Positions 17,028-62,100 of a stretch of 64,000 bases of DNA are shown here, in pieces; the stretch's first letter is position 1, and each line of letters opens with the position of its first letter. The translations under genes were made by a program, and so were the position numbers. Where the stretch lies: contig CAWCKH010000004.1 in the NCBI GenBank assembly GCA_963796055.1, positions 1,696,001-1,760,000 of the forward strand, read 5' to 3'. The stretch is from an uncultured delta proteobacterium (GTDB lineage Bacteria > Myxococcota > Myxococcia > Myxococcales > Myxococcaceae). Below the pieces are notes generated by a model, which saw only the letters and a list, made by a program, of their open reading frames with translations, made no database searches and was not told where the DNA came from.

Positions 17028-17858
17028 TCAGAGGTCAGCCGCTCCCAGCCGGCGCATCGCCACCAGGACCGGGAGCACGAGCCAGAGGACGAGGCTCCCA
17101 CCCAGGGCGAGCGTTGCCCCCAGCGGTCCGTGGGTGAAGCGCAGCAGCGCCAGTGACGCTGCCCCGAATGCCGCGGTTCCCTCGAGGAGCAGCAGCTCGG
17201 CTGTGCGCAGCGCCGATGCCGGATTCACCAGGACGGAGACGATGAGCACCCGCGAGCCGAGCCCCGACGGCAGGAGGGTGCAGAGACCGAGGGCGATCAG
17301 GTCGAGAAAGATGACCGCCCCGAACCACACCACCAGTGCCACAGCGATCGCCCGGGTGCGCTTCTGGCCCGGCGCACCGGAGGCGATTGCGCCCGCCAGG
17401 CCGAGGAAGATTCCGGTGAGCACCGCCGCCCCGGCCACCAGGAGCAGATAGCTCCCCAGCCCGAGCTGGTCGGTCTTCCAGTAGATGAGCGCCCCCGCGG
17501 CCCCGAAACCGATTGCCTCGGCGCCGACCAGTGCCGCGCCCAGGCCGAGGAGCTTTCCGAGCAGGATGTCGCGGCGGGCGAGCGGCTGAGCGAAGAGCAG
17601 CTCCATGGAGCCCCGCTCCCCGGAGAGGGCCACCACCCCCAGGAGCAGGGCCATCAAGGGCACCACCAGCAGAACCAGCTGCAGCAGCGAGGCGGCGGTG
17701 CGGGCGAAGTCCTGGACCCCCACGCCTCCGGTGAGCACGTAGCCCGAGCCCGCCACGGCCAGCGCCAGCAGAGCGAAGACCGCCGCGAAGATCTGGATCG
17801 AACGCGCGCGGGCCGAGAGCAGCAGCTCCTGCCGGGCGACGAGAAGGAGCGCGTTCAT
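17028..17858 (-). CDS. nosY: NosY, ABC permease for CuZ maturation
   Basis: Six TM helices, ERGSMELLFAQPLARRDILLGK motif; last gene of the nos operon. Confidence 0.9.
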   Translation of the reverse strand: MNALLLVARQELLLSARARSIQIFAAVFALLALAVAGSGYVLTGGVGVQDFARTAASLLQLVLLVVPLMALLLGVVALSGERGSMELLFAQPLARRDILLGKLLGLGAALVGAEAIGFGAAGALIYWKTDQLGLGSYLLLVAGAAVLTGIFLGLAGAIASGAPGQKRTRAIAVALVVWFGAVIFLDLIALGLCTLLPSGLGSRVLIVSVLVNPASALRTAELLLLEGTAAFGAASLALLRFTHGPLGATLALGGSLVLWLVLPVLVAMRRLGAADL

Positions 17859-18298
17859 CGTGCCGCCTCCCGTGGAGCCTCGCCGAACACCTCCCGGAAC
17901 TCCAACGGACGGCCGCCCGTCGCGGCGGGATCGGAATCCCGGGAACCTTGGTCCTGGTAGGCGAGGACGTGCGAGCCCATGGGCGTGGAGGCGGCCGGCT
18001 GGAGCACGTAGGAGGCCTCCCGGGCCGGCACCCAGGCTCCGCTGCGGCGATCGGCGACGTAGGCCACTGCCCCCCCGCGCGGCGGATGTTCGCGGAGGTA
18101 GCGGGCCAGACAGCCCACGTCATCGAAGAACAGCGGCTCCTCTCCGGCAGCGACCAGCTGCGCAGCAGTCCGCGGATCGGAGACCAGCATCCGGCAGCTG
18201 GCACAGGCATCGTTCCGGGTGTCGAGGGCAGCGGGAGGCGGCGGGCCTCGGGAGCAGGCCAGAGCGCCGACGACCACGAGGAGCGCCATCCTGCTCAC
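17855..18298 (-). CDS. nosL: NosL copper chaperone lipoprotein
   Basis: Lipobox ALAC; CASCRM, FDDVGC and TPMG motifs; GTGA/ATGA coupling to both neighbours. Confidence 0.9.
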   Translation of the reverse strand: MSRMALLVVVGALACSRGPPPPAALDTRNDACASCRMLVSDPRTAAQLVAAGEEPLFFDDVGCLARYLREHPPRGGAVAYVADRRSGAWVPAREASYVLQPAASTPMGSHVLAYQDQGSRDSDPAATGGRPLEFREVFGEAPREAAR

Positions 18299-19191
18299 GA
18301 CGCGACCCCCAGCTCGCGGTAGAGGTCCTCGAGCCCACCCTCGGTCGACGAGAGCGCCCGCAGCGCGATACCCGCCCCGCGCACCGCCTCCACCACGTGG
18401 GCCCGCTCCTCCGGCGACCCTCGCACCGCGAGGAACCGGCCATCCCACTCCGGCGCGCCGGCGAGCGTGCTCACGCCGGCGAGGAGCTCGGGCGGGCAGC
18501 GGTCCAGCTCCAGCCGCAGCGTTCCGCCGAGGGCCAGGCGCCTCTCCAGCTCGGGGCGGCTGAGCTCGGCCGCGAGCCGTCCCTCCACCAGGATCACCAC
18601 CCGGTCGGCGAGCTGCTGCACATCCTCCAGCTGGTGCGAGGTGAAGAGCACCGCGCTCCCTCGCTCTCTGGCGGCGCCGATCAGCCGCCGCATCGCCTGC
18701 ATCCCCGGAGCATCGAGCGAGGCGGTGGGCTCGTCGAGTAGCAGCACCTCGGCCTCGGGCAGCGCCGCCACCGCCAGCCCGAGCCGCTGGAGCATCCCGC
18801 CGGAGTAGGTGCTCACCATCCGGCCCGAGGCGCCGTTGAGGGCGGCCAGCGTCAGCGCCTGCTGCCCCTTTCCTGGCGGCGCCGAGCGCAACTGCCCGTA
18901 GAAGTCCACCACCTCGGCGCCGGTGAGCGCGCCGGGGAAAGTCACCCGCTGCGGAAGGAAGGAGATGGTCCGGCGGGAGCCGGGGAGGTGCGCGGGCAGT
19001 CGGTCCTTTCCCAGCAGGACCTCGCCCGAGGTGGGATGGAGCAACCCGGCGGCAGCCTTGAGCGAGGTGGTCTTCCCCGAGCCGTTGGGCCCCACCACTG
19101 CCACCACCTCGCCGCGTTTCACCGAGAAGCTCAGGCCGCGCAGCGCGGCCTGCCTCCCGTACCACTTCGAGACTTCGCGGAAGATGATCAC
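18295..19191 (-). CDS. nosF: NosF ABC ATPase
   Basis: GPNGSGKT, YSGGM signature, LLLDEP, SH switch. Confidence 0.92.
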   Translation of the reverse strand: MIIFREVSKWYGRQAALRGLSFSVKRGEVVAVVGPNGSGKTTSLKAAAGLLHPTSGEVLLGKDRLPAHLPGSRRTISFLPQRVTFPGALTGAEVVDFYGQLRSAPPGKGQQALTLAALNGASGRMVSTYSGGMLQRLGLAVAALPEAEVLLLDEPTASLDAPGMQAMRRLIGAARERGSAVLFTSHQLEDVQQLADRVVILVEGRLAAELSRPELERRLALGGTLRLELDRCPPELLAGVSTLAGAPEWDGRFLAVRGSPEERAHVVEAVRGAGIALRALSSTEGGLEDLYRELGVAS

Positions 19192-20543
19192 CGCCGCCTC
19201 CCCCGCGAGAGCAGCACAGCACCGGCGGCCAGGAGTCCGAGGCTGGCCGTCATCCCGAGCAGGCCTCGCCGGTTCGCCTTGCCCCGGACCACCGGGAGGC
19301 GCGAGAGGTCCGGTAGACGGCCGAGGGGCCGGTGATCGACGGCCTTCACCGCCTCGAGGACCGGGAAGGTCCGTTCCGCCGCCGCGAGGGCCAGCGCCGA
19401 GGGGCTCCGCACCAGGAGGTCGGCGGCGAGGAGGTTTCCCCGGAGATGGTCGAAGAGGCTGGAGAGGACGTACTCCCCATCGCTCCGCCCGTCGCCGTCG
19501 AGGTCCGGCCAGTCGTTGTCCGACCAGAAGTTCCCATCGAAGGAAGTGTCGGTTCGCCGGCCCACCAGGGTGAGCGGGCTCAGATTGCCGAGGAAGGCGT
19601 TGTCCTCGAAGCTGTTGGCGGCGCAGGAGTCGAAGAGGACGATCGCCGCGTCCGAGTCGGCGATCAGGTTCCGGCGGAAGACGTTGCGCCGCGAGCCCTC
19701 CAGGAAGAGGCCGCGGGCGTTGTCCAGGAGCACGTTGTCCTCGGCGACGGAGTCCTCGCAGGACTGGCAGAGCACGCCCACCGAGGCGAAGCCGCGGTTG
19801 TGGAGGAACTGATTGCGCCGGAGGATGAGCCTCCGCGAATACATCAGCACTCCGCCGGCCGCGCTGTTCTCGAAGACATTCTCCTCGAACGCGTTGTCGT
19901 CCGAGTACATGAAGTGCAGCCCGTAACGGACGTTCCGGACCACGTTGCCTCGCATCCTTCCGCCCGAGGAGGACTGGATGTAGAGCCCGTCGCGCGACAA
20001 ATCGATGCTGTTCCCGGTGAGCTCGAAGCCCCGGGTGTTCCAGATGTGGATCCCCGAGCCTTTCTCGCCATCCTCCTTGCCCGGGATTCCGTGGATCTCG
20101 CAACGATCAATCCGCGCTCCGTCGGCGGCTCGGAGATAGATGCCGAACAGCGCGCCGCTGATCCGGCAGTCGCGGGCGGTGAAGCCGGACGCTGCGACGT
20201 GGATTCCCGAAGAGTCCCGGTCGATGGAGCCGCCCCCGCGCCCGTCGATGTCGAACCCCTCGACGGTCACTCCCGGGGCGCGCACCCGGACCACGCTGCC
20301 CTTCCCCGACCCCACCAGCCGCGGCCGCCCATGGCCGACCAGGGTCACGGGGCGGTCGAGCACCAGATCTCCGGGGTATTCGCCCGGGTCGACGTCGATG
20401 CGTTCACCTGGAGCCGCGGCATCCACGCGAGGCTGGAGAACGGAGGCTTCCCCGGGCGGAGGCCTCTCCTCGAGCGCCCCCGGCTCGATGGCCGACATCT
20501 CGGGGCCACCGGCAGCGAGCGCCATGAGGAGGAGCTGGATCAC
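19188..20543 (-). CDS. nosD: NosD beta-helix maturation protein with C-terminal membrane anchor
   Basis: RDGLYI, VRYGLHFMYS, GNFWSD and DLDGDGRSD motifs; hydrophobic tail ending RGRRR. Confidence 0.92.
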   Translation of the reverse strand: MIQLLLMALAAGGPEMSAIEPGALEERPPPGEASVLQPRVDAAAPGERIDVDPGEYPGDLVLDRPVTLVGHGRPRLVGSGKGSVVRVRAPGVTVEGFDIDGRGGGSIDRDSSGIHVAASGFTARDCRISGALFGIYLRAADGARIDRCEIHGIPGKEDGEKGSGIHIWNTRGFELTGNSIDLSRDGLYIQSSSGGRMRGNVVRNVRYGLHFMYSDDNAFEENVFENSAAGGVLMYSRRLILRRNQFLHNRGFASVGVLCQSCEDSVAEDNVLLDNARGLFLEGSRRNVFRRNLIADSDAAIVLFDSCAANSFEDNAFLGNLSPLTLVGRRTDTSFDGNFWSDNDWPDLDGDGRSDGEYVLSSLFDHLRGNLLAADLLVRSPSALALAAAERTFPVLEAVKAVDHRPLGRLPDLSRLPVVRGKANRRGLLGMTASLGLLAAGAVLLSRGRRR

Positions 20544-21193
20544 CGTGCAGGCTCGCCAGCCGGGACGCTCGCCTGCACTCGCCTGCGGCGAAGGGCGAAC
20601 AGCATCGCCGCGGCCAGCAGCAAGACCACGAGAAGCATGGCGTAGGTCCCGAGCTTGGGAAACGAGTAGACGTCGAAGTTGGCCAGCTTCGCGTGGCCGA
20701 AGAGCGGGGGCATGAACGGGGCCACGTGCACCGCGGCCTGAGGCGACAGGTCGTGCCCGTACCGGTACAGGGTGTAGCCGAACGACCAGAGCGAGAAGAG
20801 ACCGAAGTAGGTGAAGAGGACGCTCACGTCGAGCAGCTGCGCCACCCGGCCGTGCACCGCGGCCCGCAGAAAGAGCAGCGCCAGTACCCCCAGGGCGAAG
20901 GGCAGCCAGCGGAACTGCGTGAAGTCCTCCTCCGTCAGGTCCTTCATCCCGATGTAATGGTTCAGGACGTTGATCTCCCGGACATCCTGACCCCGGTTCC
21001 CGCCCTGGAGCTTGAAGCTATAGATGTCCAGCCGCAGCCCGTCGGGGTACTGCGGCGCAAACATCGTCAGGTTCCAGAGGGGAAGGAAGTTGGCCAGCAC
21101 CGCCACCAGCGCGGCAAGGGCGAGGAGTGCCCGTGGATTCCAGCCCAGCGGCCGGTCGAGCAGCTGCTGCTCCTTCTCCAGCACCGAAGCCAT
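20540..21193 (-). CDS. nosB: NosB, clade II nos membrane protein
   Basis: PLWNLTMFAPQYPDGL, INVLNHYIGM, YGHDL, PPLFG...NF; four TM helices; directly after nosZ. Confidence 0.85.
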   Translation of the reverse strand: MASVLEKEQQLLDRPLGWNPRALLALAALVAVLANFLPLWNLTMFAPQYPDGLRLDIYSFKLQGGNRGQDVREINVLNHYIGMKDLTEEDFTQFRWLPFALGVLALLFLRAAVHGRVAQLLDVSVLFTYFGLFSLWSFGYTLYRYGHDLSPQAAVHVAPFMPPLFGHAKLANFDVYSFPKLGTYAMLLVVLLLAAAMLFALRRRRVQASVPAGEPAR

Positions 21194-21221
21194 GGAACAC
21201 CCCTCGCCGGCGGCGCGGCTG

Positions 21222-23084
21222 TCAGTTCACCGTCGGGCTCACGACCAGGTATCCTTGCATCTCCTGGTGCAGCGCCGAGCAGAAGTTGGTGCAGTAGTAA
21301 GGGAAGACGCCCTGCTTGTCGGCCTTGAAGGTGACCGTCTTGGTCTCCCCCGGATCGACCACCACGTTGATGTTGTAGTCGAGCAAGGCAAAGCCATGGA
21401 GCTCGTCGGTGGTCTGCTCGATGTTGGTGAGCGCCACGGTGACGAGGTCGCCCGGCTTCACGGTGAAGTTGGTGGGAGTGATGGTGGAGCGGGTGAGGAT
21501 CGCCTTCACCGTCACCTTGTTTCCTTGCCGGGTGACGCCGGTGTCCTTCAGGTCCCAGACCGCCAGCGGGTGCTTGTTCTCCTCCTTGGGGTAGACCTCG
21601 ATGGGGTGGAGCTTGCTGGCGCGGATGATCTGCGCGTAGTGCGGCTCGGGCTCGGTGAAGGCGTCGTAGAGCAGCTTCATCTTCTCGCCCGAGATGTCCA
21701 CCAGCTGCGAGGACTCGGGCTGGGAGGGACCGACCGAGAGGTGCCGCCCGTGGGAGAGCTTGTTCAGCCCCACCAGGAACCGGCCCTGTGGCTCGACCGT
21801 GTCGCCCTCGGCCGCGGCGAGGTGGCCGATGGAATAGGACATGGGCGTCTTGTCCACCACCTCCCAGGTGCCGAGCTTCCACTTGGCGATCGCGCTGTCG
21901 ATGAAGAGCGACGTGTAGGCGTACCCGTCGGGACCGAACTGGGTGTGGAGCGGTCCGAGGCCCACCGGCACCTCGGCATCCTTGATGCTCTCGTACTTGA
22001 GCACCGGGATTCCGTCCTCGTCACCGGTGAAGTCCTTGTTGCGGATGGCGGTCTGGATCTTCTCGAAGTTGAAGGCGGTGGTGATGCCGGCCAGCTTCCC
22101 CGAGCCGACGATGTACTTGCCGTCCGGAGAGACGTCGACCCCATGCGGCGACTTCCCGCAAGGCATGAAGAACACCAGGCCCGGAACCTCTCGCGGATCG
22201 AGGACCTTCACCCCGCCGATCATCTTCCCCTTTCCCTCGGCAGAGGCCTTCTCCGCCACCCGCCAGTCCACCGCGGCGATGTAGTCCCGATCCTTCTGCG
22301 AGGCGGTCACCTCCAGCTTCCCGGTGGCCCGCTCGGTGTTGTAGCTGGTGAAGAACATCCACCCGTTGGAGACCTTCTTCCCCGCGTCGCCCAGGTCGTA
22401 GTCGAAGGGCGGCATCACGATCTCCCAGCCCAGCGACATCTCACCGGTCTTGGGATCGATCTTGATGCCCGCCAGCACGCCCTTGTAATCGGTGGCGTAC
22501 TTCTCCACCGGGAGCGCCGTTCCCTTGGGGATGGGGATGGAGAAGCGGGTCCCCATCATCGCGTACTCGGTGTTGGGAGTGACGAAGCTGGAGGAGTGGT
22601 TCCCCGAGACGTTGGGAATGGGCCCCAGGATCTGCTTGGTCTTGAAGTCCCGGAGGTCGATGCGGGCGATCCGCCCGTTCATGTCGTTGATGAACAGCCA
22701 GCGGCCGTCGTAGGCGCCGTTGGTCTCCGAGAGCGCGGGGTGGTGCGCGTCGCCCCAGGTGAGGTTTCCCAGCATCTTCTTGGTGTCGTCGTCGAAGCCG
22801 TAGCCGGTCGCCGGATAGGGGGTGAACACCGGGATGGTGGAGAGGTGGCGCATCGAGGGGATGCCGTAGACGTAGACTTGGCCCGAGTGCCCGCCCGAGG
22901 CGAACATGTAGAACTCGTCCAGGTCTCCGGGCGGCACGTAGGTCTTCTGGGCAGCCACCGCGATGTCCGAGGTCACCGCCCCGCCCGGCCTCGCCGCCTG
23001 CTTCGGCGGGGTGGGCGCGCAGGTCACGACGAAGGCCGCCACCGCCAGCCCCGCGCCCAACAGAATCTTGGTCCTGGTCTTCAT
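21222..23084 (-). CDS. nosZ: Clade II (Sec-dependent) nitrous-oxide reductase
   Basis: SGGHSGQ; CuZ His motifs GDAHH, GNH, SPHG, GPLH, IGH, EPH; CuA site HGF...CTNFCSALHQEM; no twin-arginine motif; GGGAG RBS. Confidence 0.97.
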   Translation of the reverse strand: MKTRTKILLGAGLAVAAFVVTCAPTPPKQAARPGGAVTSDIAVAAQKTYVPPGDLDEFYMFASGGHSGQVYVYGIPSMRHLSTIPVFTPYPATGYGFDDDTKKMLGNLTWGDAHHPALSETNGAYDGRWLFINDMNGRIARIDLRDFKTKQILGPIPNVSGNHSSSFVTPNTEYAMMGTRFSIPIPKGTALPVEKYATDYKGVLAGIKIDPKTGEMSLGWEIVMPPFDYDLGDAGKKVSNGWMFFTSYNTERATGKLEVTASQKDRDYIAAVDWRVAEKASAEGKGKMIGGVKVLDPREVPGLVFFMPCGKSPHGVDVSPDGKYIVGSGKLAGITTAFNFEKIQTAIRNKDFTGDEDGIPVLKYESIKDAEVPVGLGPLHTQFGPDGYAYTSLFIDSAIAKWKLGTWEVVDKTPMSYSIGHLAAAEGDTVEPQGRFLVGLNKLSHGRHLSVGPSQPESSQLVDISGEKMKLLYDAFTEPEPHYAQIIRASKLHPIEVYPKEENKHPLAVWDLKDTGVTRQGNKVTVKAILTRSTITPTNFTVKPGDLVTVALTNIEQTTDELHGFALLDYNINVVVDPGETKTVTFKADKQGVFPYYCTNFCSALHQEMQGYLVVSPTVN

Positions 23085-23097
23085 GCTGCGCTCCCTT

Positions 23098-24327
23098 CTA
23101 GTGGCCCCCAGTGGAGGGGCCGTTCGCCGCACCCTTCTGCCGAAGGTGCTCGGCAAAGGCTTCGCGGAGCTTCTGGATCGCGACCTGCTTCTCGTCGGGG
23201 GTGAGGACGATCTGCCGCGAGAGCACCACCGACATGGTCCCGGTGGGCGCAGCGATGAAGTCGTCGATGGTGCGCCCGAAGCGGGCCTGCACGTCCTCGA
23301 CCGCGACCGACAGGTCGGGGCCGATCTGTGCCGGGCTCTTCACCCCGTAGACCGAGATCGAATGACAAACGAAGCACCCGGTCTTCACGAACCACGCGCC
23401 TGGGCCGGTGCGCATCCGGGCCTCGGCCTCGCGCTCTTCCTTGGTCTGCGGCTCGCTGTGCGGAGCACCGGAGAGGAACGAGGCAGGGAGCGACTCCCTC
23501 CGCCAGGAGAGCACGAGCATCGCCAGGGCCTGCGCCTCCTTGGTGGAGAAGTGGAAATTGGGCATCACCGTGTCCTGCACCAGCGTCCGCGGGTCCTTGA
23601 GGTGGGCCACGTGCCAGGCGAAGGCGGTCTGCTGCCCGGAGAGATGGCTGTAGTCGTACTGCTCTGCAGGCTTGTCCCCCACGTAGGTGAGCTCCGGCCC
23701 GATGGTGCCACCGCGCCCGTTGATCACGTGGCAGGCGCGGCAGCCCTTCTCGTTCACCAGGGCCTTGGCCAGGTTGATCGCCTCGGCGCCTTTCGTCTCG
23801 CGGTCGTAGCGGTGGCAGACGTTGCACTGCATCTGCATCAGCGAGGAGGACGGCAGGGCCAGGGAGTACGACTCACCGAGGGCCTTCCCCAGCACCGGCT
23901 CCTCCCAGTGCTCGACCGGTCCGTGCGCTTCCTGCGGGTCGACCGCGTACCCCTGTCCTCCGTGGCAGGAGGTACAGCCGAACCGGGAGGTGGGGTGGCT
24001 CCGGAGAATCTCCCGGGGGTGGCTCTTGAACGGTTCCTCGGCAGTCTCGAACCCCGACCAGCTCACCGCCTGATGGCAGGTGATGCAGCGGTCGGCCCGC
24101 TGCAGCTCGGGAACCCAGATCTGCTGCGTCCCGGACGGAATCGCCGCAGCCTTCGGGGCCCCGAACTTCTCGGTGACCCGGCGCCGGAACTCGCCCTGGT
24201 ACCAGCGCCAGTCGTGCCGGCGGTCGCTCCAGGCGAAGAGGAGGGTGGAGACGATCAGCAGCACCCCCACCCCGGCGAGCACGGTGCGGTCCCGCTTGGC
24301 GAAGGACGCGGTGCGGAGCGGTTCCAT
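23098..24327 (-). CDS. Membrane-anchored pentaheme c-type cytochrome
   Basis: N-terminal TM helix; CITCH, CTSCH, CNVCH, CRACH, CFVCH. Confidence 0.92.
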   Translation of the reverse strand: MEPLRTASFAKRDRTVLAGVGVLLIVSTLLFAWSDRRHDWRWYQGEFRRRVTEKFGAPKAAAIPSGTQQIWVPELQRADRCITCHQAVSWSGFETAEEPFKSHPREILRSHPTSRFGCTSCHGGQGYAVDPQEAHGPVEHWEEPVLGKALGESYSLALPSSSLMQMQCNVCHRYDRETKGAEAINLAKALVNEKGCRACHVINGRGGTIGPELTYVGDKPAEQYDYSHLSGQQTAFAWHVAHLKDPRTLVQDTVMPNFHFSTKEAQALAMLVLSWRRESLPASFLSGAPHSEPQTKEEREAEARMRTGPGAWFVKTGCFVCHSISVYGVKSPAQIGPDLSVAVEDVQARFGRTIDDFIAAPTGTMSVVLSRQIVLTPDEKQVAIQKLREAFAEHLRQKGAANGPSTGGH

Positions 24328-24329
24328 CG

Positions 24330-25658
24330 TCAGATCCTCGAGGGCACCTGGGGCCAGCTCTCCCAGGGCCAGTAGTAGTGCCAGTAGGGGCCGCGGCAGA
24401 ACGTGCCGACCAGCGTCAGGAGCAGCACCCCGAGCACGAAGAGCAGGAACACCGCGTTCTGCAGGCGGCGGTTCCGCGGGAACCACTGCCCGGCTTCGTT
24501 GGCGGGGCTCCGGTCCAGCCACGGCCAGAGCGTGAGCAGCACCAGGAGCGCGCCGGGAAGCAGCACCCCGCCGAGGAAGGCCCCGTTCACGGTGAAGCTG
24601 CCAATGTGGAAGGTGGTGTCGGTGACGATTTCTTGTAACCAGAGGAAGTACCAGGGGGCCTTGGCCGGATTGGGCGTGACCAGCGGGTTGGCCGGCTCCT
24701 CCAGCGGGGAGCGGACGAAGACCGCGAGCATGCTCAGCGCGGCGATGGTCCCCAGCACCACGATGCTGATCCGCCGCACCACATCTGGCACCGAGTTGAC
24801 CAGCTCATCCGGCGCCTGCAGCGTGGTCGCCCGGACCGTGGGGCCCGTCCCGCGGGCGATGCCCAGGAGCGAGTAGGTCTTGGTCGGCGACGGGGGCTGC
24901 TCCACCTTGGTCGCCGCCAGCCCCAGCTGGTCGGCGCGGGCCAGCCCTCCGTCCTTGCGCACCCGCCACATGTGGTAGGCGAACAGCACGCCCAGCAGCC
25001 CCGGCAGGAAGACGATGTGCAGCACGTAGAAGCGCAGCAGCGTCGGCTGATCGATGTTCCGCCCGCCGATGAGCAGCTCGCGCACCGTGGGGCCGATGGC
25101 CGGGATGGAGGCGGCGATGTTGGTCCCCACCGTCACCGCCCAGAAGGCCAGCTGATCCCAGGGCAGGAGGTAGCCGGTGAAGGAGAGGAAGAGGGTGACC
25201 ACCAGCATCGCCACCCCGAGCACCCAGTTCCACTCGCGGCGCTGCGCCCGGCCGTGCGCGTTCTTGTACGCCCCGGTGAGGAACACCCGGACCAGGTGGA
25301 GGAACACCACCGCCACCATGAGGTGGGCGGAGAGCCGGTGCACTGCGCGGATCCAGCTCCCGAAGGTCACCACGTACTCGATGTCCTTCACCGAGAGGTA
25401 GGCCCGCTCCACCGAGGGGATGTGGAGGAACATCAGCGGGAGGCCGGAGAGGATCAGGAGGAGGAACAGCGCCGCCGACACCGTGCCCAGCCAGAAGGAG
25501 TAGCTCCAGGCCAGCGAGCGCCGGTAGCTCCGGGCCGGGAACCAGTGCAGGGCGAAGTTGGAGGCCACTGCATCGCCGGCCTCCCGGTCCGAGCGTGGGC
25601 GAACGCTCCAGAGCCTTCGGGGTCGGACGCCGGGAGCGCTGTCGAGGGGCTTGGTCAT
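24330..25658 (-). CDS. Cytochrome b of a Rieske/cytochrome b complex (unsplit)
   Basis: Heme His pairs in VHRLSAHLM..FLHL and VLHIVFLP..AYHM; TGYLLPWDQ; Qo-region NPAKAPWYF. Confidence 0.93.
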   Translation of the reverse strand: MTKPLDSAPGVRPRRLWSVRPRSDREAGDAVASNFALHWFPARSYRRSLAWSYSFWLGTVSAALFLLLILSGLPLMFLHIPSVERAYLSVKDIEYVVTFGSWIRAVHRLSAHLMVAVVFLHLVRVFLTGAYKNAHGRAQRREWNWVLGVAMLVVTLFLSFTGYLLPWDQLAFWAVTVGTNIAASIPAIGPTVRELLIGGRNIDQPTLLRFYVLHIVFLPGLLGVLFAYHMWRVRKDGGLARADQLGLAATKVEQPPSPTKTYSLLGIARGTGPTVRATTLQAPDELVNSVPDVVRRISIVVLGTIAALSMLAVFVRSPLEEPANPLVTPNPAKAPWYFLWLQEIVTDTTFHIGSFTVNGAFLGGVLLPGALLVLLTLWPWLDRSPANEAGQWFPRNRRLQNAVFLLFVLGVLLLTLVGTFCRGPYWHYYWPWESWPQVPSRI

Positions 25659-25666
25659 GACGGGTC

Positions 25667-26179
25667 TCAGGCGACGGTGAGCCGGAAGTCGCGCTCCACC
25701 GGTTGGGCGAGGTCCACCACCAGCTGCCCGTCGTCGGAGGCGACCGAGAGCTCGTACCAGGCCAGCGGCCGGGGGGCGGGTCCGGCGACGTTGGTCCCGT
25801 CCCCGGCGTACTTCGAGCCGTGGCAGGGGCACAGGAAGCGGTGGGTGAGACGGGTCGACTTTCCGCCCACCTCCTTCGTCTCGGGATTGGAGAGTGCCTC
25901 GGCCCTCACCGTGCAGCCGAGATGGGTGCAGACCGCGGATATGGCGTGAAAGATGTGCCCCTCGCGAAAGACGAAGAGGCGCTCGTCCGGGAGGTACTTC
26001 AGCCCTTCGGGGTACTCGGAGGGCAGCCCGAGCTTCACCGTGGTGGGCGAGTCGTAGGACACGTTGGGGACCAGCGAGCGGAGCGCCGCTCCGGCCTGTG
26101 CCCCCAGCGCCACCAGTCCGGTGCCAATTCCCACCGTCTTGAGGAGCTCGCGCCGGTTGGGCTGCTTCTTCTCGCTCAT
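25667..26179 (-). CDS. Tat-exported Rieske [2Fe-2S] protein
   Basis: NRRELLK Tat motif; CTHLGC and CPCHGSKY; GPAPRPL; GGAGG RBS. Confidence 0.95.
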   Translation of the reverse strand: MSEKKQPNRRELLKTVGIGTGLVALGAQAGAALRSLVPNVSYDSPTTVKLGLPSEYPEGLKYLPDERLFVFREGHIFHAISAVCTHLGCTVRAEALSNPETKEVGGKSTRLTHRFLCPCHGSKYAGDGTNVAGPAPRPLAWYELSVASDDGQLVVDLAQPVERDFRLTVA

Positions 26180-28101
26180 GACACCTCCTCGAAGCGCTCG
26201 GTGATGGTGAATCGCTCCATGGTCATTGCGTCGGTCGGGCAGCGGATGGCGCACAGTCCGCACCGGATGCAGGCCGTGTCGTCCTTGAGCAGGGCGGTCA
26301 GCGGCAGGTCCGAGTCCTGCGACGCCACCCGCGCCAGCGCGGCCCGCTCGTCCTCGGGGAGGGCGAGCTGCTCGAGGGGGACGAAGGCCAGGCACTTCTC
26401 CGGGCAAACGTCCACGCAGCGGCCGCAGAGGACGCAGGCCTCGGGGTCGTAGATGGTCTGCACGTGACAGACCAGGCAGCGCGCCGCCTGTATCCGGGCC
26501 TCGGCGTCGCCGTAGCCAATCTCCACCTCGGCGATGCCGGTGCGGCGGCCCACGTCGAGCGTCGGGGGAGCCTCACGGTCGAGCAGCTCGAAGCCGGCGA
26601 CCATCCGGTACTGGGCCGTGGGGATCTTCTCCACCTCCATCCAGGCGCGCCGCCGCGCGCGGCCGTGCGCCAGGTATTCGTGGATGGAACGGGCAGCACG
26701 CTTGCCGTTGGCCACCGCCTCGATGAGGTTCCGGGGGCCGAAGGCCACGTCGCCTCCGGCGTAGACGCCCGGGGCGGAGGTGGCGAGGGTCTCGGGGTCC
26801 ACGCGGATCGCTCCCGAGGGAGCGAGCGCCACTCCGTCGCCGGGATGAAGGAAGGAGAGATCCGCCGTCTGCCCCACCGCGAGCACGCAGGCGTCCGCGG
26901 CGAGCGACTCGACGTCGGCGTCGTCGTAGGTAGGGGCGAAGCGGCCGCTCGCGTCGAAGACGGCCAGCACGCGACGGAGCTCCACCGACTGGAGCCGTTT
27001 CTCGCCGAGGAAGCGGAGCGGGCCGCGCCGGGTGACGAAGCGGATGCCCTCGCGCTTGGCCTCCTCGAACTCCTCCTTGCCCTGGGTGGTCCGGAGGACC
27101 GGCATCTCCTCGAAGTTCTCCAGGGAGACGACGGTCACCTCCATCGAGCCGCTCCGGAGCGCGGCTCGCGCCACGTCCAGCGATTCCTGGAGCCGCGCCT
27201 CGCCGGTCTCGGTCTCGGGCTGCGGTGCCTCCTGTCCGGCGCGCAGCGCGGTCCGGGCAGCGTCGAAGGCGACGAACCCTCCGCCGACGACCACCACCCG
27301 CTGGCCAAGGTTCATCCGGTAGCCGCGGTTGACGTTGAGCAGGTAGTCGACTGCCTTCACCACCCCGTCCAGCTCCACCCCGGGGACGTTCAGGTCCCGC
27401 CCGCGCGAGACGCCCACCGAGACGAAGACCGCCTGGAAGTCATCGGCCTTGAGCTGGGACAGCCCGAAGGACGGAGTCAGGGCGGTGTTGAGCCGCAGCT
27501 CCACCCCGAGCTCGAGGATCTTGTTGATCTCCGACTGGATCAACGCCCGGGGCAGCCGGTACTCGGGAATGCCGAAGCGCATCATCCCCCCGGCCTCGGC
27601 CGCGGCGTCGAACACGGTGACGCGGTAGCCCAGGAGGGCCAGGTCGTGTGCCGCCGACAGCCCCGCCGGGCCTGCACCGACCACCGCAATCTTTGCGCCG
27701 CGGACCGGCGCAGGCCCGGGGACCACCGGGAGGTGGAAGGCGAAGCGGTTCCCTTCCGAGACGAGGGTCTGCCGCAGGGAGTCCTGGGTGTCGGGCCGGC
27801 TCGACTCCACGCCGTAACGCTCGGTGAGATGCCGCTTCAGCGCGCGGATGGCGATCGGCGCATCGATGGCTCCGCGGCGGCAGGCGTCCTCGCACGGAGC
27901 GGCGCAGACCCGCCCGCACACCGAGGCGAACGGGTTGGGAGCCCGCGCGACGAGGAAGGCCTCCCGGTCGCGGCCCTCGCCGATGAGCTGCACGTACCGG
28001 CCGGCGTCGGTCGCAACCGGACAGCCGGCCTGACACTTCACCTGTGCCTTCCAGTCCTCCAGGTTGGGAAGGCGCGCGGCGATCGGCAGCGCGGAGCTCA
28101 T
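26176..28101 (-). CDS. NAD(P)/FAD-dependent oxidoreductase with N- and C-terminal FeS domains (GltD/NfnB/DsrL-like architecture)
   Basis: CQAGCP, CGRVCAAPCEDAC, GAGPAG, GIPEYRLP, GGGFVAFD, RCLVC, CVLCGRCVDVCP, CIRCGLCAIRCP; no signal peptide. Confidence 0.9.
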   Translation of the reverse strand: MSSALPIAARLPNLEDWKAQVKCQAGCPVATDAGRYVQLIGEGRDREAFLVARAPNPFASVCGRVCAAPCEDACRRGAIDAPIAIRALKRHLTERYGVESSRPDTQDSLRQTLVSEGNRFAFHLPVVPGPAPVRGAKIAVVGAGPAGLSAAHDLALLGYRVTVFDAAAEAGGMMRFGIPEYRLPRALIQSEINKILELGVELRLNTALTPSFGLSQLKADDFQAVFVSVGVSRGRDLNVPGVELDGVVKAVDYLLNVNRGYRMNLGQRVVVVGGGFVAFDAARTALRAGQEAPQPETETGEARLQESLDVARAALRSGSMEVTVVSLENFEEMPVLRTTQGKEEFEEAKREGIRFVTRRGPLRFLGEKRLQSVELRRVLAVFDASGRFAPTYDDADVESLAADACVLAVGQTADLSFLHPGDGVALAPSGAIRVDPETLATSAPGVYAGGDVAFGPRNLIEAVANGKRAARSIHEYLAHGRARRRAWMEVEKIPTAQYRMVAGFELLDREAPPTLDVGRRTGIAEVEIGYGDAEARIQAARCLVCHVQTIYDPEACVLCGRCVDVCPEKCLAFVPLEQLALPEDERAALARVASQDSDLPLTALLKDDTACIRCGLCAIRCPTDAMTMERFTITERFEEVS

Positions 28102-28814
28102 CGGACACTACCCCTGTGCACTCCGGATGCCACCGGACCGACTCGCTCGAATCGCGCGGCGAGCACGTTGTTCTCGAGATGGACGTGCTCGAGCGTGTCC
28201 CGGTCCATCGCCTCGAGCTCGGACATGAGCGCCCGGTAGGTAGCGCAGGCCCAAAGCGGCGGGATGAAGCGATCACTGAGTGTGCGGAGCGTTCGCAGGG
28301 CCTCGCCCACCTGGAGGTGCTCGGCCCGCATCCGGTCGAGCTCGGCGCGGATGCGTTGGCGGGACCGGGCTCTGCCGATCAGAAGGGGAAAGAGCACCGC
28401 CTCCTCGTGTTGCAGATGGGGCTCGAGGAGCCCCCGCAGGACGCGGAGGACGGACTGGATCTCCTCCAGCGACGGCTGGCGCTCGGCGTGCGCCTCGACC
28501 ACCCTCCCGGCCAGGAGCTCGACGAGGGGAAGGGTCTTGCGCAGGTAGACGTGGTGCTGATCGACGATGCGGGCGACGAGCTGGAGCGTGGTGAGCGACC
28601 GCGGGTCGAGCCCGGGCCTTCCGGGAGGCTCTCCGGCGACCGCCGCCTCCAGCTCGGCCACCAGCGCCGCCACGTCGATGCCCCGCTCGGCGCAGGCCTC
28701 GGCGAGGGGCACCGGGCCCCGGCAGCAGAAGTCGATGTCCCGCTCGACGAGAATGCCCGCGCAGCGGGGATGCTCCAGGACGATGTGTGCGACAGGCTGG
28801 TCCGGGGCGATCAC
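28098..28814 (-). CDS. ric: Ric/YtfE/ScdA-family hemerythrin-like di-iron protein (start approximate)
   Basis: IDFCCRG, HHVYLR, HLQHEEAVLFP, EH, HVHLENNVL. Confidence 0.88.
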   Translation of the reverse strand: MIAPDQPVAHIVLEHPRCAGILVERDIDFCCRGPVPLAEACAERGIDVAALVAELEAAVAGEPPGRPGLDPRSLTTLQLVARIVDQHHVYLRKTLPLVELLAGRVVEAHAERQPSLEEIQSVLRVLRGLLEPHLQHEEAVLFPLLIGRARSRQRIRAELDRMRAEHLQVGEALRTLRTLSDRFIPPLWACATYRALMSELEAMDRDTLEHVHLENNVLAARFERVGPVASGVHRGSVR

Positions 28815-28829
28815 GTGGACTTCGCGTGA

Positions 28830-28846
28830 AGCATCCGGCGTGCCCA
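28830..28846 (-). promoter_or_regulatory. Putative sigma-54 (-24/-12) promoter of the ric...nos operon
   Basis: Minus strand reads TGGGCACGCCGGATGCT, i.e. GG-CACG-N4-AT-GC with exact GG-N10-GC spacing, just upstream of ric; a sigma-54 activator gene is nearby. Confidence 0.7.
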
Positions 28847-28864
28847 AACGCCGTGGCACGATCG

Positions 28865-29683
28865 ATGAAACCGGAACGACCGATGGATGTCCCCGTTCAG
28901 GCGCTCTCGCCTCCAGCGCGCTCGCTCGCCCCGCGCGAGCACGGCGCCTACGGCCAGCTCGCGCTGCCGATGGCGGCAGCCCTCGCCAGCGGGCGGCCGG
29001 GCCCGGTCGCGCTCCTGCTCGCGGCGAGCGCCTGGGCGTTCTTCCTTGCCCACGAGCCTGCGCTGGTGCTCCTCGGCCGGCGCGGTGAGCGGGCGCGGAC
29101 CGAGCAGCGCCGCCGTGCGGTGAGCCGGCTTCTCGCCCTCGGGCTCGCCGGGGTCGCGCTCGGCGGCGCCGGGTTGATGCTCGTCTCCCCGTCGGTGCGC
29201 TGGGCGGCCCTGGCCAGTGCCGTCCTCGCCCTCGGCTTCGGCGCAGTGGTGGCGCTCGGAGGCGAGCGCTCGGCACCGGGTGAGATGCTGGCTTCCATCG
29301 CGCTCGCCGGGGCCGCCTTCCCGGTCGCCCTCGCCGCGGGCCTGCCCGAGGACGACGCCGCAAGGGCCTGGCTGGTCTGGTCGATCGGGCTTGCCGCCCT
29401 CGTTCTCCCGGTGCGGAGCATCGGCGCGCGCCGGCGAGGAAGCGCATCCCTCGTGTCGCGGCTGCTGCCGGCAGCAGTGGCGCTGTGCCTCGGCTTCGCA
29501 CTCCGGGGACGCCCGCTCACCCGGATGGACCTCGCCGCGCTCGCGGCGCTCGTCGTGACCAGCGCCTGGCTCGGGCTGACCCGGCCCGACCCGCGACACC
29601 TTCGCCGCGTCGGCTGGAGCATCGTGGGAGCCACGCTGGTGGCCGGGGTCGTGCTGGTCCTCGCCGTCCGGGTCGGCGCATGA
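28865..29683 (+). CDS. YwiC-like membrane protein
   Basis: PREHGAY N-terminal motif, multiple TM helices, C-terminal LRRVGW. Confidence 0.75.
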
Positions 29684-29748: not shown

Positions 29749-30825
<1,077 letters not shown>

Positions 30826-59120: not shown

Positions 59121-62100
59121 ATGCACGTGGACCGCCGCACGTTTCTCAAGGGGACTGCCGCCGTCGGTGGAGCGGTGGGGCTGGGGTTCTTCGATCTGTC
59201 CGAAGCCCGCGCCGAGATGCGGGAGCTGAAGATCTCCCGCACCACCGAGACCCGGAGCACCTGTCCCTACTGCTCCGTGTCATGCGGGGTGATCATCCAC
59301 ACCCTCGGGGACAAGGCGAAGAACGTCTCCGGCTCGGTGGTGTACGTCGAGGGAGACCCTGACCATCCGATCAACCGCGGGACGCTCTGCCCCAAGGGCG
59401 CCACCCTCAAGAACGACATTCACCACCCCGGCCGGCTGACCGTCCCCAAGGTGCGGCGCCCCGGTTCCGACCGGTGGGAAGAGATCTCTTGGGACGCGGC
59501 CATCGCCGGCATCGCCAAGCACATCAAGGACACCCGGGACCGGACCTTCGTCGCCAAGAACGCTGCCGGGGCGGTGGTGAACCGCACCCCGGGCATCGGG
59601 CTCATCGGCGGCTGCACCGACACCAACGAGTTCAATCTCTTGCAGTGGAAGTTCGGCGCCGGCCTCGGCATCACGTACCGAGACACACAAGCTCGAGTAT
59701 GACACGGTCCAACGGTGGCCAGTTTGGCCGCCACGTTCGGTCGCGGTGCGATGACCAACGGCTGGGTGGACATCAAGAACGCGGACGTCGTGTTCGTGAT
59801 GGGCGGTAACCCGGCCGAGAACCATCCCTGCGGATTCAAGTGGGCGATCGAGGCGAAGAAGACGCGCGGGGCGAAGATCGTCTCCGTGGATCCGCGGTTC
59901 CAGCGGACCGCGGCGGTGGCCGATCTCTACGCCCCACTTCGCGCAGGGACGGACATCGCCTTCCTCCACGGCATCATCCGCTACGCCCTGGAGACGAAGC
60001 GCTACCACGCCGACTACGTGAAGCTGCACACCAACGCCTCGTACATCGTCGGTGAGAAGTACGGCTTCCAGGACGGCCTGTTCAGCGGCTTCGACGAGAA
60101 GAAGGGCGAGTACGACAAGACAGCCTGGGGTTACGAGCCGGACGCACAGAGCAAGGCCTACGGCGTCGACCGGACGCTGGAAAACCCCCGCTGCGTCCTC
60201 CAGCTCTTGAAGAAGCACGTGGACCGCTACACGCCGGAGATGGTGGAGAAGATCTGCGGCACGCCCAAGGCGCAGTTCCTGAAGGTCGCCGAGATGGTGA
60301 CCTCCACCGGGAACGCGGAGAAGGTTGGCACCATCCTGTACGCGCTGGGCTGGACCCAGCACTCGGTGGGAGTTCAGATCATTCGCACCGCGGCGATGCT
60401 CCAGCTGCTCCTGGGCAACGTCGGCCGGCCGGGCGGCGGGGTCAACGCGCTCCGTGGGCACTCGAACATCCAGGGCGCCACCGACATGGGCGGGACGTTC
60501 GACATCCTCCCCGGCTACCTCAAGACGCCGAGCTCGAACCTGCCCGACCTCGCCACCTATCTGGAGAAGAGCACGCCCTGGACGCTGAACAAGATGGCCT
60601 GGGCGTCCATGAACTACTGGACCAACTACCCCAAGTTCATGGTCTCGCTGCTCAAGACGCTCTGGGGCAAGGCGGCCACCAAGGAGAACGACTTCGGCTA
60701 CGCCTGGCTACCGAAGGTCGACGGGAACTACTCCTGGGTCTACATGTTCGACGACATGTACCGCGGCAGCAGCAAGCGCGCGGGCGGCGACGAACCCGGA
60801 CCCGAGGGCCTGATCTCCTTCGGCATGAACCCGGTAGGGACCGGTCCCAACTCGCCGAAGATGGTCGCGGCGCTCTCCAAGCTGAAGTGGCTGGTGATGG
60901 TGGAGAACCAGGAGAACGAGACCGCGGCGTTCTGGAAAGCGCCGAAGGATCTCGGGACACCGGACGCCGCGCAGATCAAGACCGAAGTCTACCTGCTCCC
61001 CGCCACCAATTTCGCGGAGAAGGACGGCACATTCACCAACTCCGGTCGCTGGGCGCAGTGGAAGTGGAAGGCGGTGGACGGCCCGGGCCAGTCCAAGAGC
61101 GACCAGGAGATCATCAGCCGCATGCTCCTCGCGCTGAAGGACCTGTACAAGAAGGAGCCGGGCGCGCTGCCCGAAGCGGTGTTCAACATCTCCTGGCCGT
61201 ACACCAACCCGGCCAACCCCGACCTGTCCGAGGTGCTGAAGGAAATCAACGGCAAGGCGATCACCGACCTGGTCGAGCCGCCGAAGGATCCGAAGTCCAA
61301 GGAGCCGCCGAAGGTTCTCAAGACCGCCGGGCAGCAGCTGGACGGCTTCGCCCAGCTCCGGGACGACGGCAGCACCTCCTGCGGCAACTGGCTCTACGGC
61401 GGCGTGTTCACCGAGGCCGGGAACATGTCGCAGCGGCGGAACAATGCCGACCCCCTGGGACTCGGAATGTTCCACCAGTGGGCCTTCAGCTGGCCCGCCA
61501 ACCGGCGCGTCATGTACAACCGCGCCTCGGCCGACGCGGAGGGAAAGCCGTGGGATCCGAAGCGCGCCGGCATCCAGTGGAACGGCACGAAGTGGGTGGG
61601 TGACGTCCCGGACATGAAACCGGACGCGCCGCCCGGGCAATTCGGCGCGTTCATCATGCTCCCCGAGGGCGTGGGCCGGCTCTTCTCGCCGGTGCTGAAC
61701 GACGGGCCCTTCCCCGAGCACTACGAGGCGGTGGAAGCACCGGTGGACAACCCGCTCCACCCCAAGGTGTCGGCCAGCCCGGTGCTGAAGCGCTTCAACA
61801 GCGACAAGGACAAGTGGGGCAAGGCGGACGAGTTCCCGATCGTCTGCACCACCTACCGCCTCACCGAGCACTTCCACTACTGGACCAAGCACCAGGCCGG
61901 CGGACGGCTCAACGAGGTGCAACCCGGCATCTTCTTCGAGATCCCCGAGGAGCTGGCGAAGGAGAAGGGCATCCAGAACGGAGAGATGGTGAGGGTCTCC
62001 TCGGCGAGGGGATCGATCGAGGGCCCGGCGATGGTCACCAAGCGGATGCCGGGCTTCATGATCAACGGCAAGCGCGTCTGGCAGATCGGCTTCCCCATTC

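Follow-up and report, generated by a model that had tools for sequence, protein, structure and literature searches.

How clade II nitrous oxide (N2O) reductase, NosZ, receives its electrons has been worked out mainly in Wolinella, whose system is built from different parts than the one described here and whose NosZ is a fusion with a cytochrome c domain. In soils, the clade II NosZ of Acidobacteriota and Myxococcota are among the most abundant (PMC13122619). Another group of complexes comes from planctomycetes, where cytochrome b genes are accompanied by NAD(P)-binding oxidoreductases (Dibrova 2017, PMC5600118). AlphaFold 3 (AF3) models of anammox complexes place a new b heme at the cytochrome b dimer interface, beside the flavoprotein, with His43 and Arg247 or His62 and Arg266/Lys267 as the interface-heme residues in Kuenenia; the authors, who propose that such a bc complex reduces NAD(P)+, rate the surviving quinone-reduction site as a far larger problem (PMC12954380). 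Here we describe a clade II nos operon on a 64,000-nucleotide stretch of contig CAWCKH010000004.1 (positions 1,696,001 to 1,760,000; hereafter the window) from an uncultured delta proteobacterium of the Myxococcaceae, in which nosZ is preceded by genes for a flavoprotein, a Rieske protein, a cytochrome b and a pentaheme cytochrome c. Judged by its sequences, this module is a flavoprotein-Rieske-cytochrome b-multiheme c unit related to the anammox Kuste4569-4574 complexes. What our analysis adds is that, in the alignments, the His, Arg and Lys of the putative interface heme are kept in its cytochrome b while both known signatures of the quinone-reduction (Qi) site are lost.

Quinone sites, hemes and flavoprotein of the module

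The Rieske boxes, the four heme b ligands (H107/H121/H214/H229) and the motifs around the quinol-oxidation (Qo) site place these proteins among the Rieske/cytochrome b complexes. The Qo region (GYLLPW, the ef loop and WY) is strictly conserved, and its APWY aligns on the PEWY of Aquifex, chicken and subunit IV chains. As a hallmark of the NosZ-linked form APWY was rejected, since loci with the anammox gene order have it too. An AlphaFold model of the cytochrome b (predicted local distance difference test, pLDDT, 76; predicted template-modelling score, pTM, 0.78) has bc1 cytochrome b as its best Foldseek match, with a TM of about 0.63.

In bovine bc1 the Qi residues are given as His201, Lys227 and Asp228 (PMC7908018). 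Arg234 of the window protein aligns on the Qi His ('HIWALH') of two rhizobial bc1 cytochromes b, and Ile297 falls on the Asp of the rhizobial 'KD' and on Phe40 of subunit IV. We take these rhizobial residues to correspond to the bovine ones. Position 297 is acidic in 3/75 rows and in 0/50 nosZ-linked rows, and is Glu in Brevibacillus QcrC, in split APWY relatives and in the anammox-order loci, while the position of the heme-ci Cys is occupied by W in 67, Y in 5, G in 3 and C in none of the 75 rows. From these alignments, both known Qi signatures, the bc1 His/Asp pair and heme ci with its Glu, are missing; the PEWY-type cytochrome b of the window's own genome has Asp at the Qi-Asp position. Several other loci of the phylum Planctomycetota have lost the Cys and kept the Glu, so that the NosZ-linked group is the most reduced form among those compared. 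The protein thus departs from a bc1-type Q-cycle enzyme (APWY in 75/75 rows, Arg234, Ile297) and from the b6f or Firmicute b6c type (fused cytochrome b, Trp56, Ile297), sharing with the latter a b6-like His214-His229 spacing.

Anammox-type loci were sought with a flavoprotein profile in 401 genomes of another phylum, of which 29 matched, and 20 regions from 15 genomes were compared. Three of these (L260, L262 and L263) show the Kuste4569-4574 gene order together with His44, Arg248-Lys, APWY, WCMGG, CPCHGSKY, LKR and CLE, and are 31-42% identical to the module in Rieske protein, flavoprotein, cytochrome b and subunit IV (37% for the flavoprotein of L260). Their anammox identity is inferred from this gene order; Pfam HZS_alpha proved unspecific as a marker, with matches in 11/15 genomes. 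His38 of the window aligns with their His44, which lies 204 residues ahead of Arg248, the same spacing as that of Kuenenia His43/Arg247 (PMC12954380). The mapping of the putative interface-heme residues therefore runs through the order and spacing of these three loci and does not use the Kuenenia sequences directly. The idea that His38 marks complexes with a flavoprotein was rejected because the residue is present in cytochromes b without an adjoining flavoprotein. One of them, Brevibacillus QcrB (L225:2306-2974), has its interface-position His in DHEVP, and a third heme may predate the flavoprotein-bearing complexes and occur more widely.

The Rieske boxes read CTHLGC and CPCHGSKY, the second being common to the window and the three anammox-order loci. 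The Ser/Tyr signature is S-Y in 60, S-F in 25 and A-Y in 1 of 86 rows, which predicts a Rieske protein of the high-potential type. Kuenenia Rieske proteins with S-Y and S-F are reported at +303 and +335 mV, and a Rieske cluster near +300 mV would imply, by the symmetry rule, a very low heme bL (PMC12954380). An earlier note on this DNA had read APWY in place of PEWY, the lack of a heme-ci Cys and a Rieske protein with Ser and Tyr from the letters, and the alignments and box sequences agree with it on all three. The pentaheme cytochrome has five CxxCH motifs in 60/64 rows; H103, H111, H135, H242 and M255 are found in 64/64 and M365 in 58/64. This pattern points to three probable bis-His hemes near the membrane, followed by two His/Met class I domains. 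Its model has a pLDDT of 66, and a Foldseek fold search gave no match at E<=0.001.

The flavoprotein has four predicted [4Fe-4S] clusters, whose cysteines are all invariant, and a C-terminal ferredoxin domain; its closest PDB matches are NfnA of NfnABC (9n5u), 9bov and StnC (8oh5). Lys89 lies at the proximal cluster, in a motif LKR kept in 68/68 rows, as in the StnC type, and the FAD of StnC, which has Lys there, is described as non-bifurcating (PMC10482914). The YRR phosphate-site position reads SLE in 64/68 and CLE in 2/68 rows, a replacement of the kind that marks the NAD(H)-preferring DsrL (PMC7596348). The protein is probably NAD(H)-type and non-bifurcating, and differs from bifurcating NfnB in having Lys not Glu at the proximal cluster, SLE not YRR, and no NfnA-like gene in the operon. 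A complex prediction covering cytochrome b 14-404 and flavoprotein 19-627 scored 0.45, against 0.00 for the best control, with contacts agreeing at 88% or more across runs and a partner pLDDT of at least 73. The same mark was reached by 116/157 solved and 2/215 mismatched pairs, and scores <=0.60 held only 18 of the 157 solved pairs yet both mismatches, so that passes in this range are oftener wrong unless contact was likely beforehand; the prediction lends weak support to a physical contact. Equivalents of Arg511/Arg550 of the anammox models were looked for in the flavoprotein and the mapping was dropped, as the numbering could not be fixed.

The reading that we tentatively favour, at somewhat short of even chances, is that menaquinol is bifurcated, with one electron going to NosZ and the other to NAD+. 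The products of the four genes before nosZ would form a single dimeric complex in the membrane, belonging to the anammox flavoprotein-Rieske/cytochrome b family, and its outer Qo (APWY) site would oxidise menaquinol. The first electron would pass through the high-potential Rieske cluster and the pentaheme cytochrome to CuA of NosZ and on to N2O. The second would cross the membrane via hemes bL and bH and, with no functional Qi site, leave by a third b heme, ligated by His38 from each monomer, to the ferredoxin domain of the flavoprotein, and then by its Fe-S wire to FAD and NAD+. In this way N2O reduction would drive electrons from menaquinol up to NAD+, in reverse electron transfer, and each quinol would move one charge. 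The scheme is grounded in what is observed here: the gene content and linkage, the conserved and lost residues, the membership of the family and the menaquinone genes. A low-potential electron needs another exit because Qo is intact, the Rieske protein would be held oxidised by NosZ and no Qi site is evident, and the flavoprotein is proposed as that exit because it is the only cytoplasmic redox partner in the operon. An S-Y Rieske protein in a genome with menB/menA also counts in favour of bifurcation, since it implies a very low bL, and two Fdh-N-type formate dehydrogenases make a menaquinol supply without NADH possible. We infer the assembly, the third heme, the potentials and the direction of flow.

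Several points weigh against bifurcation. We know of no biochemistry for any member of the module, the interface heme comes from AF3 prediction alone, and a His38 equivalent occurs in Brevibacillus QcrB and in six split APWY cytochromes b, at whose loci no flavoprotein was seen. Residues other than the known ones could form a Qi site. A heterotroph that has two NuoD-type genes hardly needs additional NADH for biosynthesis, and a simple chain at +300 mV is hard to reconcile with three probable bis-His hemes. APWY lacks the Glu of PEWY and was tied to reverse operation by Kao and Hunte (PMC4122944). The energetics are marginal and vary with the assumed potentials: with a symmetric bL of about -450 mV, the computed net drive is -22 to +110 mV per quinol after one charge (inputs in part from PMC12954380). 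The wider statement, that a widespread Rieske/cytochrome b complex wholly without Qi bifurcates menaquinol to N2O reductase and NAD+ via a dimer-bridging third b heme, we hold to be possible and a shade more doubtful.

The same residues bear on a modified Q-cycle, in which a non-canonical Qi would still reduce menaquinone and the flavoprotein would feed NADH electrons in from the cytoplasmic side, making the complex an NADH/menaquinol:NosZ oxidoreductase, by analogy with the role that FNR/ferredoxin are thought to play in b6f. NADH to menaquinone is downhill, the flavoprotein is of the NAD type and probably non-bifurcating, the predicted fold matches bc1 cytochrome b, and FNR is reported to co-purify with b6f (PMC5600118). 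Nevertheless, both known Qi signatures are missing, and where complex I is available NADH oxidation without pumping is a waste of energy, as is likewise argued in PMC12954380, so that we consider this cycle unlikely.

Linkage of the module to nosZ

Cytochrome b relatives were collected by a scan of species genomes, and the best 80 of at least 593 were kept as loci. Among these, the flavoprotein gene lies directly upstream of the Rieske gene in 76/77 assessable loci and nosZ lies downstream of the module in 56/66; the 64 loci that could be judged on both sides comprise 54 with flavoprotein and nosZ, 9 with flavoprotein only and 1 with neither. The flavoprotein is likewise directly upstream in 9/10 module loci without nosZ. 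Its linkage to the bc genes is thus closer than that of nosZ, and for this reason the module is not a plain quinol:cytochrome c chain. Whole-genome searches, in draft genomes, found a clade II nosZ for 1/10 of the nosZ-less loci. Five loci (L068, L074, L079, L080 and L107), in Binatia-type, deltaproteobacterial and Planctomycetota records, combine the module with a shorter tetraheme cytochrome c and have no nosZ.

The module hosts include Acidobacteriota, Myxococcota, Bacteroidota, Ignavibacteriota, Kryptoniota and KSB1, as well as the isolate Anaeromyxobacter sp. PSR-1 (L072), and because the order flavoprotein-Rieske-cytochrome b-cytochrome c-nosZ recurs in several phyla it is not due to chance. 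The earlier note had stated that some clade II clusters contain bc-type genes, which this recurrence bears out. Pairwise identities of the flavoprotein, Rieske protein, cytochrome b, cytochrome c, NosZ and NosB co-vary (Spearman 0.81-0.88, 42 loci, kin that are not independent). A protein search for relatives returned close ones only, with 7877/8000 candidates at E<=1e-30.

The synteny survey that the note had proposed was run without regard to the module, by searching 301 genomes of the phylum for nosZ. Matches came from 67, including one unpublished genome (G205), and 61 nosZ loci were examined, the window genome (G000), G205 and four fragments being left out. The module was found in 17 loci, nosC/G/H in 11, neither in 33 and both in none; NosG/H of the 11 are backed by NCBIfam in 4/11 and by tblastn in 11/11, and five of the 33 have <5 kb of upstream sequence. 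Three of the module loci have weak NapH-like matches (29-31% across the Fe-S half, with no NosG partner), which were not counted as nosH. In a FastTree NosZ tree (111 rows, 107 of them different; with a long-branch warning), the 67 module-linked rows are set apart by a branch with support 98, and the 11 nosGH rows fall on a different one. The module was recruited by one NosZ subclade and marks the whole of it, and since each type falls on one NosZ branch, the exclusion between module and nosGH amounts to one or two events. The nos clusters of genomes from the window's order group with named Anaeromyxobacter and Myxococcales records, which points to the Myxococcota for the window's own genome.

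Some further loci were noted in passing. In a same-order genome, a cytochrome b6-like domain fused to an HdrA-like Fe-S part (L193:1010-3172, plus strand) lies ~9 kb upstream of a clade II nosZ. Four genomes from a single family (L221, L222, L223 and L224) each have two tandem nosZ-like genes, one with two CxxCH and the other with a weaker TIGR04246 match. Two genome entries of 0.3 and 0.5 Mb, G134 (L191) and G098, listed as ~90% complete, have clade II nosZ, and the NosZ of L191 is a long branch on the tree.

The exclusion of nosGH is also what one would expect if the module were a wire that carries NADH electrons outward, via the flavoprotein, the b hemes and the bis-His hemes, and activates or maintains NosZ, as discussed for NosR and NosGH, with the bulk of the electrons coming from alternative complex III or a second bc complex. 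Absence from nosGH loci throughout the 61, three probable bis-His hemes near the membrane and other quinol-oxidising complexes in the genome speak for it. On the other hand, a strictly conserved Qo site and a Rieske protein are superfluous for a wire, outward transfer dissipates membrane potential, genomes in which the search gave no clade II nosZ still keep the module (9 of the 10 searched), heme bP-to-c distances are 26-28 A in the anammox models (PMC12954380), and the exclusion represents one or two tree events, not 28 independent cases. We regard such a role as quite improbable.

The link between module and nosZ could even be regulatory only, the module being an anaerobically co-induced redox-balancing or reverse-running complex that passes no electrons to NosZ. 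It does occur without nosZ, APWY has been suggested as a mark of reverse operation (PMC4122944), and as 33/61 nosZ loci have neither module nor nosGH, NosZ can be fed by unlinked complexes. Yet the gene order is fixed across phyla, with 13 nucleotides between the cytochrome c gene and nosZ in the window, and a single branch (67 rows, support 98) holds the NosZ linked to the module. We judge this view very unlikely.

The operon, its genome and its regulation

Open reading frame listing, start-codon inspection and family scans show eleven minus-strand genes filling positions 17028-28814 (Table 1), in the order RIC/YtfE-like hemerythrin, FAD/Fe-S oxidoreductase, Rieske protein, cytochrome b, pentaheme cytochrome c, nosZ, nosB-like, nosD, nosF, nosL and nosY. 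Six of the ten junctions are 4-nucleotide overlaps and the other four are gaps of 2-28 nucleotides, as the earlier note had it in calling the genes co-oriented and mostly overlapping. With nosB (by position) and nosDFLY beside nosZ and no nosR/nosX, this is a clade II nos cluster. NosZ scores 915 bits with TIGR04246 (cut-off 625) and 437 with the twin-arginine translocation (TAT) model, as expected of the Sec-dependent type. Having no CxxCH in its 620 residues, it lacks the C-terminal cytochrome c domain, again as the note had claimed; it retains the CuZ/CuA His and Cys motifs. The NosB-like protein has no Pfam or NCBIfam match and owes its name to position and hydrophobicity only. The RIC gene is immediately 5' of the flavoprotein gene in the window, L021 and L170, and elsewhere its occurrence is sporadic and weak; it is a local addition, outside the conserved module. 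Recent transfer of the operon was considered, and composition gives no signal of it (GC 69.4% against ~70.7% for the contig).

Table 1. Features of the nos operon and its surroundings, with positions in the window.
Feature	Position	Strand	Basis or remark
RIC/YtfE-like di-iron hemerythrin protein, 238 aa	28098..28814	-	TIGR03652 199.6 bits, just below cut-off 204.7; ScdA_N and Hemerythrin
GltD/NfnB/StnC-like FAD flavoprotein, cytoplasmic, 641 aa	26176..28101	-	Fer4_20, Pyr_redox_2, Fer4
Rieske protein, 170 aa, twin-Arg N-terminus	25667..26179	-	PF00355
Cytochrome b, 442 aa	24330..25658	-	b6-like four-helix part fused to subunit-IV-like part
Pentaheme cytochrome c, membrane-anchored, 409 aa	23098..24327	-	5 CxxCH
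Clade II (Sec-type) NosZ, 620 aa	21222..23084	-	TIGR04246 915 bits
NosB-like membrane protein, 217 aa	20540..21193	-	position after nosZ, kept in related loci
NosD	19188..20543	-	TIGR04247 366 bits, cut-off 300
NosF ABC ATPase	18295..19191	-	PF00005, position
NosL copper chaperone	17855..18298	-	PF05573
NosY permease	17028..17858	-	PF12679, position
Qo motif APWY, residues 334-337	24648..24659	-	KAPWYF 75/75
Trp56 at heme-ci Cys position	25491..25493	-	aligned to b6 Cys35
His38, equivalent of proposed dimer-interface b-heme ligand	25545..25547	-	75/75
Arg234-Lys235, proposed interface-heme propionate partners	24954..24959	-	both 75/75
Ile297 at Qi-Asp / heme-ci Glu position	24768..24770	-	alignments
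Sigma-54-like -24/-12 element, candidate operon promoter	28831..28845	-	upstream of RIC gene; 2 mismatches to consensus
Sigma-54 activator, candidate regulator	29749..30825	+	short N-terminal CxxC; behind divergent YwiC-like gene (about 28886-29683)

At 5.53 Mb and 98.5% completeness, the genome (G000) has the gene profile of a menaquinone-using, non-denitrifying N2O reducer, and the organism is a plausible N2O sink. Neither nirS nor nirK was found in it, the sole nirK match being the CuA domain of NosZ, and its three PF00115 proteins, two A-type oxidases and one apparently of the ba3 type, include no nitric oxide reductase (nor); the third was considered as one and rejected on its WFFGHPxVY, which we take to be a ba3-type oxidase motif. 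This genome-wide search supports the potential N2O sink named in the earlier note. None of six molybdoenzyme places scores best as NarG or NapA, and one of them, adjoining a NuoD gene, has no family match. A menB above its cut-off has a neighbouring UbiA-family (menA) gene, and MqnA/D were not found in the genome. The note had also reported nosR, nosX, nosG and nosH as absent from the operon, and rightly so: the genome has no NosR FMN domain and no ApbE/NosX, and NosG/NosH queries gave only 26-30% matches on another contig, beside a molybdoenzyme.

As to other electron carriers, the genome has two NuoD-type genes, an NrfD/pentaheme/aa3 locus resembling alternative complex III, and a second Rieske/cytochrome b pair with PEWY and a G-F low-potential Rieske protein (G000:C1:305518-325982, L126), which sits among seven multiheme cytochromes of 5-13 CxxCH, possibly for extracellular electron transfer. 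Two genes for Fdh-N-type formate dehydrogenase alpha subunits flank the nos region (window 59433-61121 and G000:C4:1690860-1692551, both on the plus strand), each with an in-frame TGA that is probably selenocysteine. An nrfHA pair (G000:C4:980907-983151, minus strand, L120) has a frameshift in a G run near the 3' end of nrfA, either an assembly error or the mark of a pseudogene. The note had proposed a dedicated, possibly proton-motive quinol:NosZ chain. Dedication is supported in that the module tracks one NosZ subclade and was not found with nosGH in any of the 61 loci; exclusivity is not, given the locus resembling alternative complex III, the second, PEWY-type Rieske/cytochrome b pair and the module's presence in genomes that were searched for a clade II nosZ and gave none (9 of 10). 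With the Qi residues missing, a proton-motive Q-cycle of the textbook kind is doubtful, and charge separation is possible by another route.

Regulation offers candidates only. Three sigma-54-like elements were noted: one on the minus strand at the end of the RIC gene (28118-28132), and a divergent pair, 28831-28845 (minus) and 28854-28868 (plus), in the 70-nucleotide gap between the RIC and YwiC-like genes. Both minus-strand elements are retained in L021 and L170, where the core of the 28831..28845 element is identical and its flanks differ, and they lie only ~17 nucleotides before start codons. Over the whole window, consensus matches are not above chance (55 against 55.5 expected); a match with <=1 mismatch lies upstream of 4/83 flavoprotein genes, against 0/83 internal controls, and with so few upstream matches sigma-54 control is not general. 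The promoter and terminator scan found no sigma-70 site and no excess of terminators, and FNR-like boxes gave 7 two-mismatch matches, zero of them in the upstream intergenic region. The sigma-54 activator has almost no sensor domain and an N-terminal CEICG, and is a candidate nos regulator; relatives 53-62% identical to it adjoin nosZ in many Myxococcota clusters of the nosGH type or with neither system. An activator match was found in 18/44 non-module and 3/17 module nos loci, and two genomes of the window's own genus carry the other NosZ type. Because same-genus genomes have the other NosZ and the activator resembles those of non-module Myxococcota, the locus appears to combine an imported module with regulatory genes of native origin in front of it. 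Two soil sequencing runs (a small share of each, probably DNA) gave only short contigs of relatives.

Comparison with known systems

The layout is already known, real and widespread, and occurs in cultured Anaeromyxobacter; Sanford et al. reportedly drew it in 2012. The legend of a 2026 figure of clade II clusters lists the labels cyt-b, cyt-c, Fe-S and Rieske (PMC13122619). A literature search found no discussion of a flavoprotein in nos clusters in the passages that it covered (PMC11102522, PMC11409646, PMC13685413, PMC5902568, PMC9697520, PMC2825233 and bioRxiv 10.1101/2024.05.17.594689); mentions may exist in the main reviews and in Kao and Hunte's supplements, which lie outside these.

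With the Wolinella-type system the operon shares clade II NosZ, NosB, menaquinone and the need for a Rieske/cytochrome b complex. It differs in having no NosGH/NosC, genes that are present as nosG/H in 11 other loci, in carrying the bc genes inside the nos operon along with a flavoprotein, and in a NosZ without a cytochrome c domain. The APWY cytochrome b clade of Kao and Hunte (2014, PMC4122944), itself uncharacterised, likewise combines APWY with a Mid+/high-potential Rieske protein; its split proteins have CxGG, mostly WCMGG, whereas the fused subgroup of the window lacks CxGG, and the word 'nitrous' is absent from the main text of that paper.

The closest likeness is to the Kuenenia complexes Kuste4569-4574 and Kustd1480-1485, which also combine a high-potential-type Rieske protein, a b6/subunit-IV-type cytochrome b, a multiheme c and an NfnA/StnC-like flavoprotein with Lys at the proximal cluster. 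An NAD(P) oxidoreductase gene of the same flavoprotein family stands in the bc operon, and the interface-heme His with Arg/Lys is matched by way of the gene-order loci. In contrast to the anammox complexes, cytochrome b and subunit IV are fused here, the Cys of heme cN and its Glu ligand are lost, the cytochrome c is a pentaheme and not a hexa- or octaheme protein, the terminal enzyme is NosZ and not an HAO-like octaheme, and cultured hosts exist.

Such a host is Anaeromyxobacter sp. PSR-1, which has the same ten genes in the same order, at 64-78% identity (54% for nosF), and the same diagnostic residues; compared with it, the window adds RIC, the YwiC-like gene and a sigma-54 activator of the type of other Myxococcota nos clusters. 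Because this NosZ-linked version lacks the residues of the Qi site and is present in a cultured isolate, NAD(P)+ reduction driven by a bc complex is now directly testable. If true, bifurcation would mean that N2O drives a reverse electron transfer based on quinone, and with complex I acting alongside it more energy could be gained per N2O. The outcome has a bearing on A. dehalogenans, for which a higher growth yield on N2O is reported (as cited in PMC5902568). Bifurcation would also provide, in a pure-culture bacterium, the first working example of the mechanism proposed for the anammox complexes.

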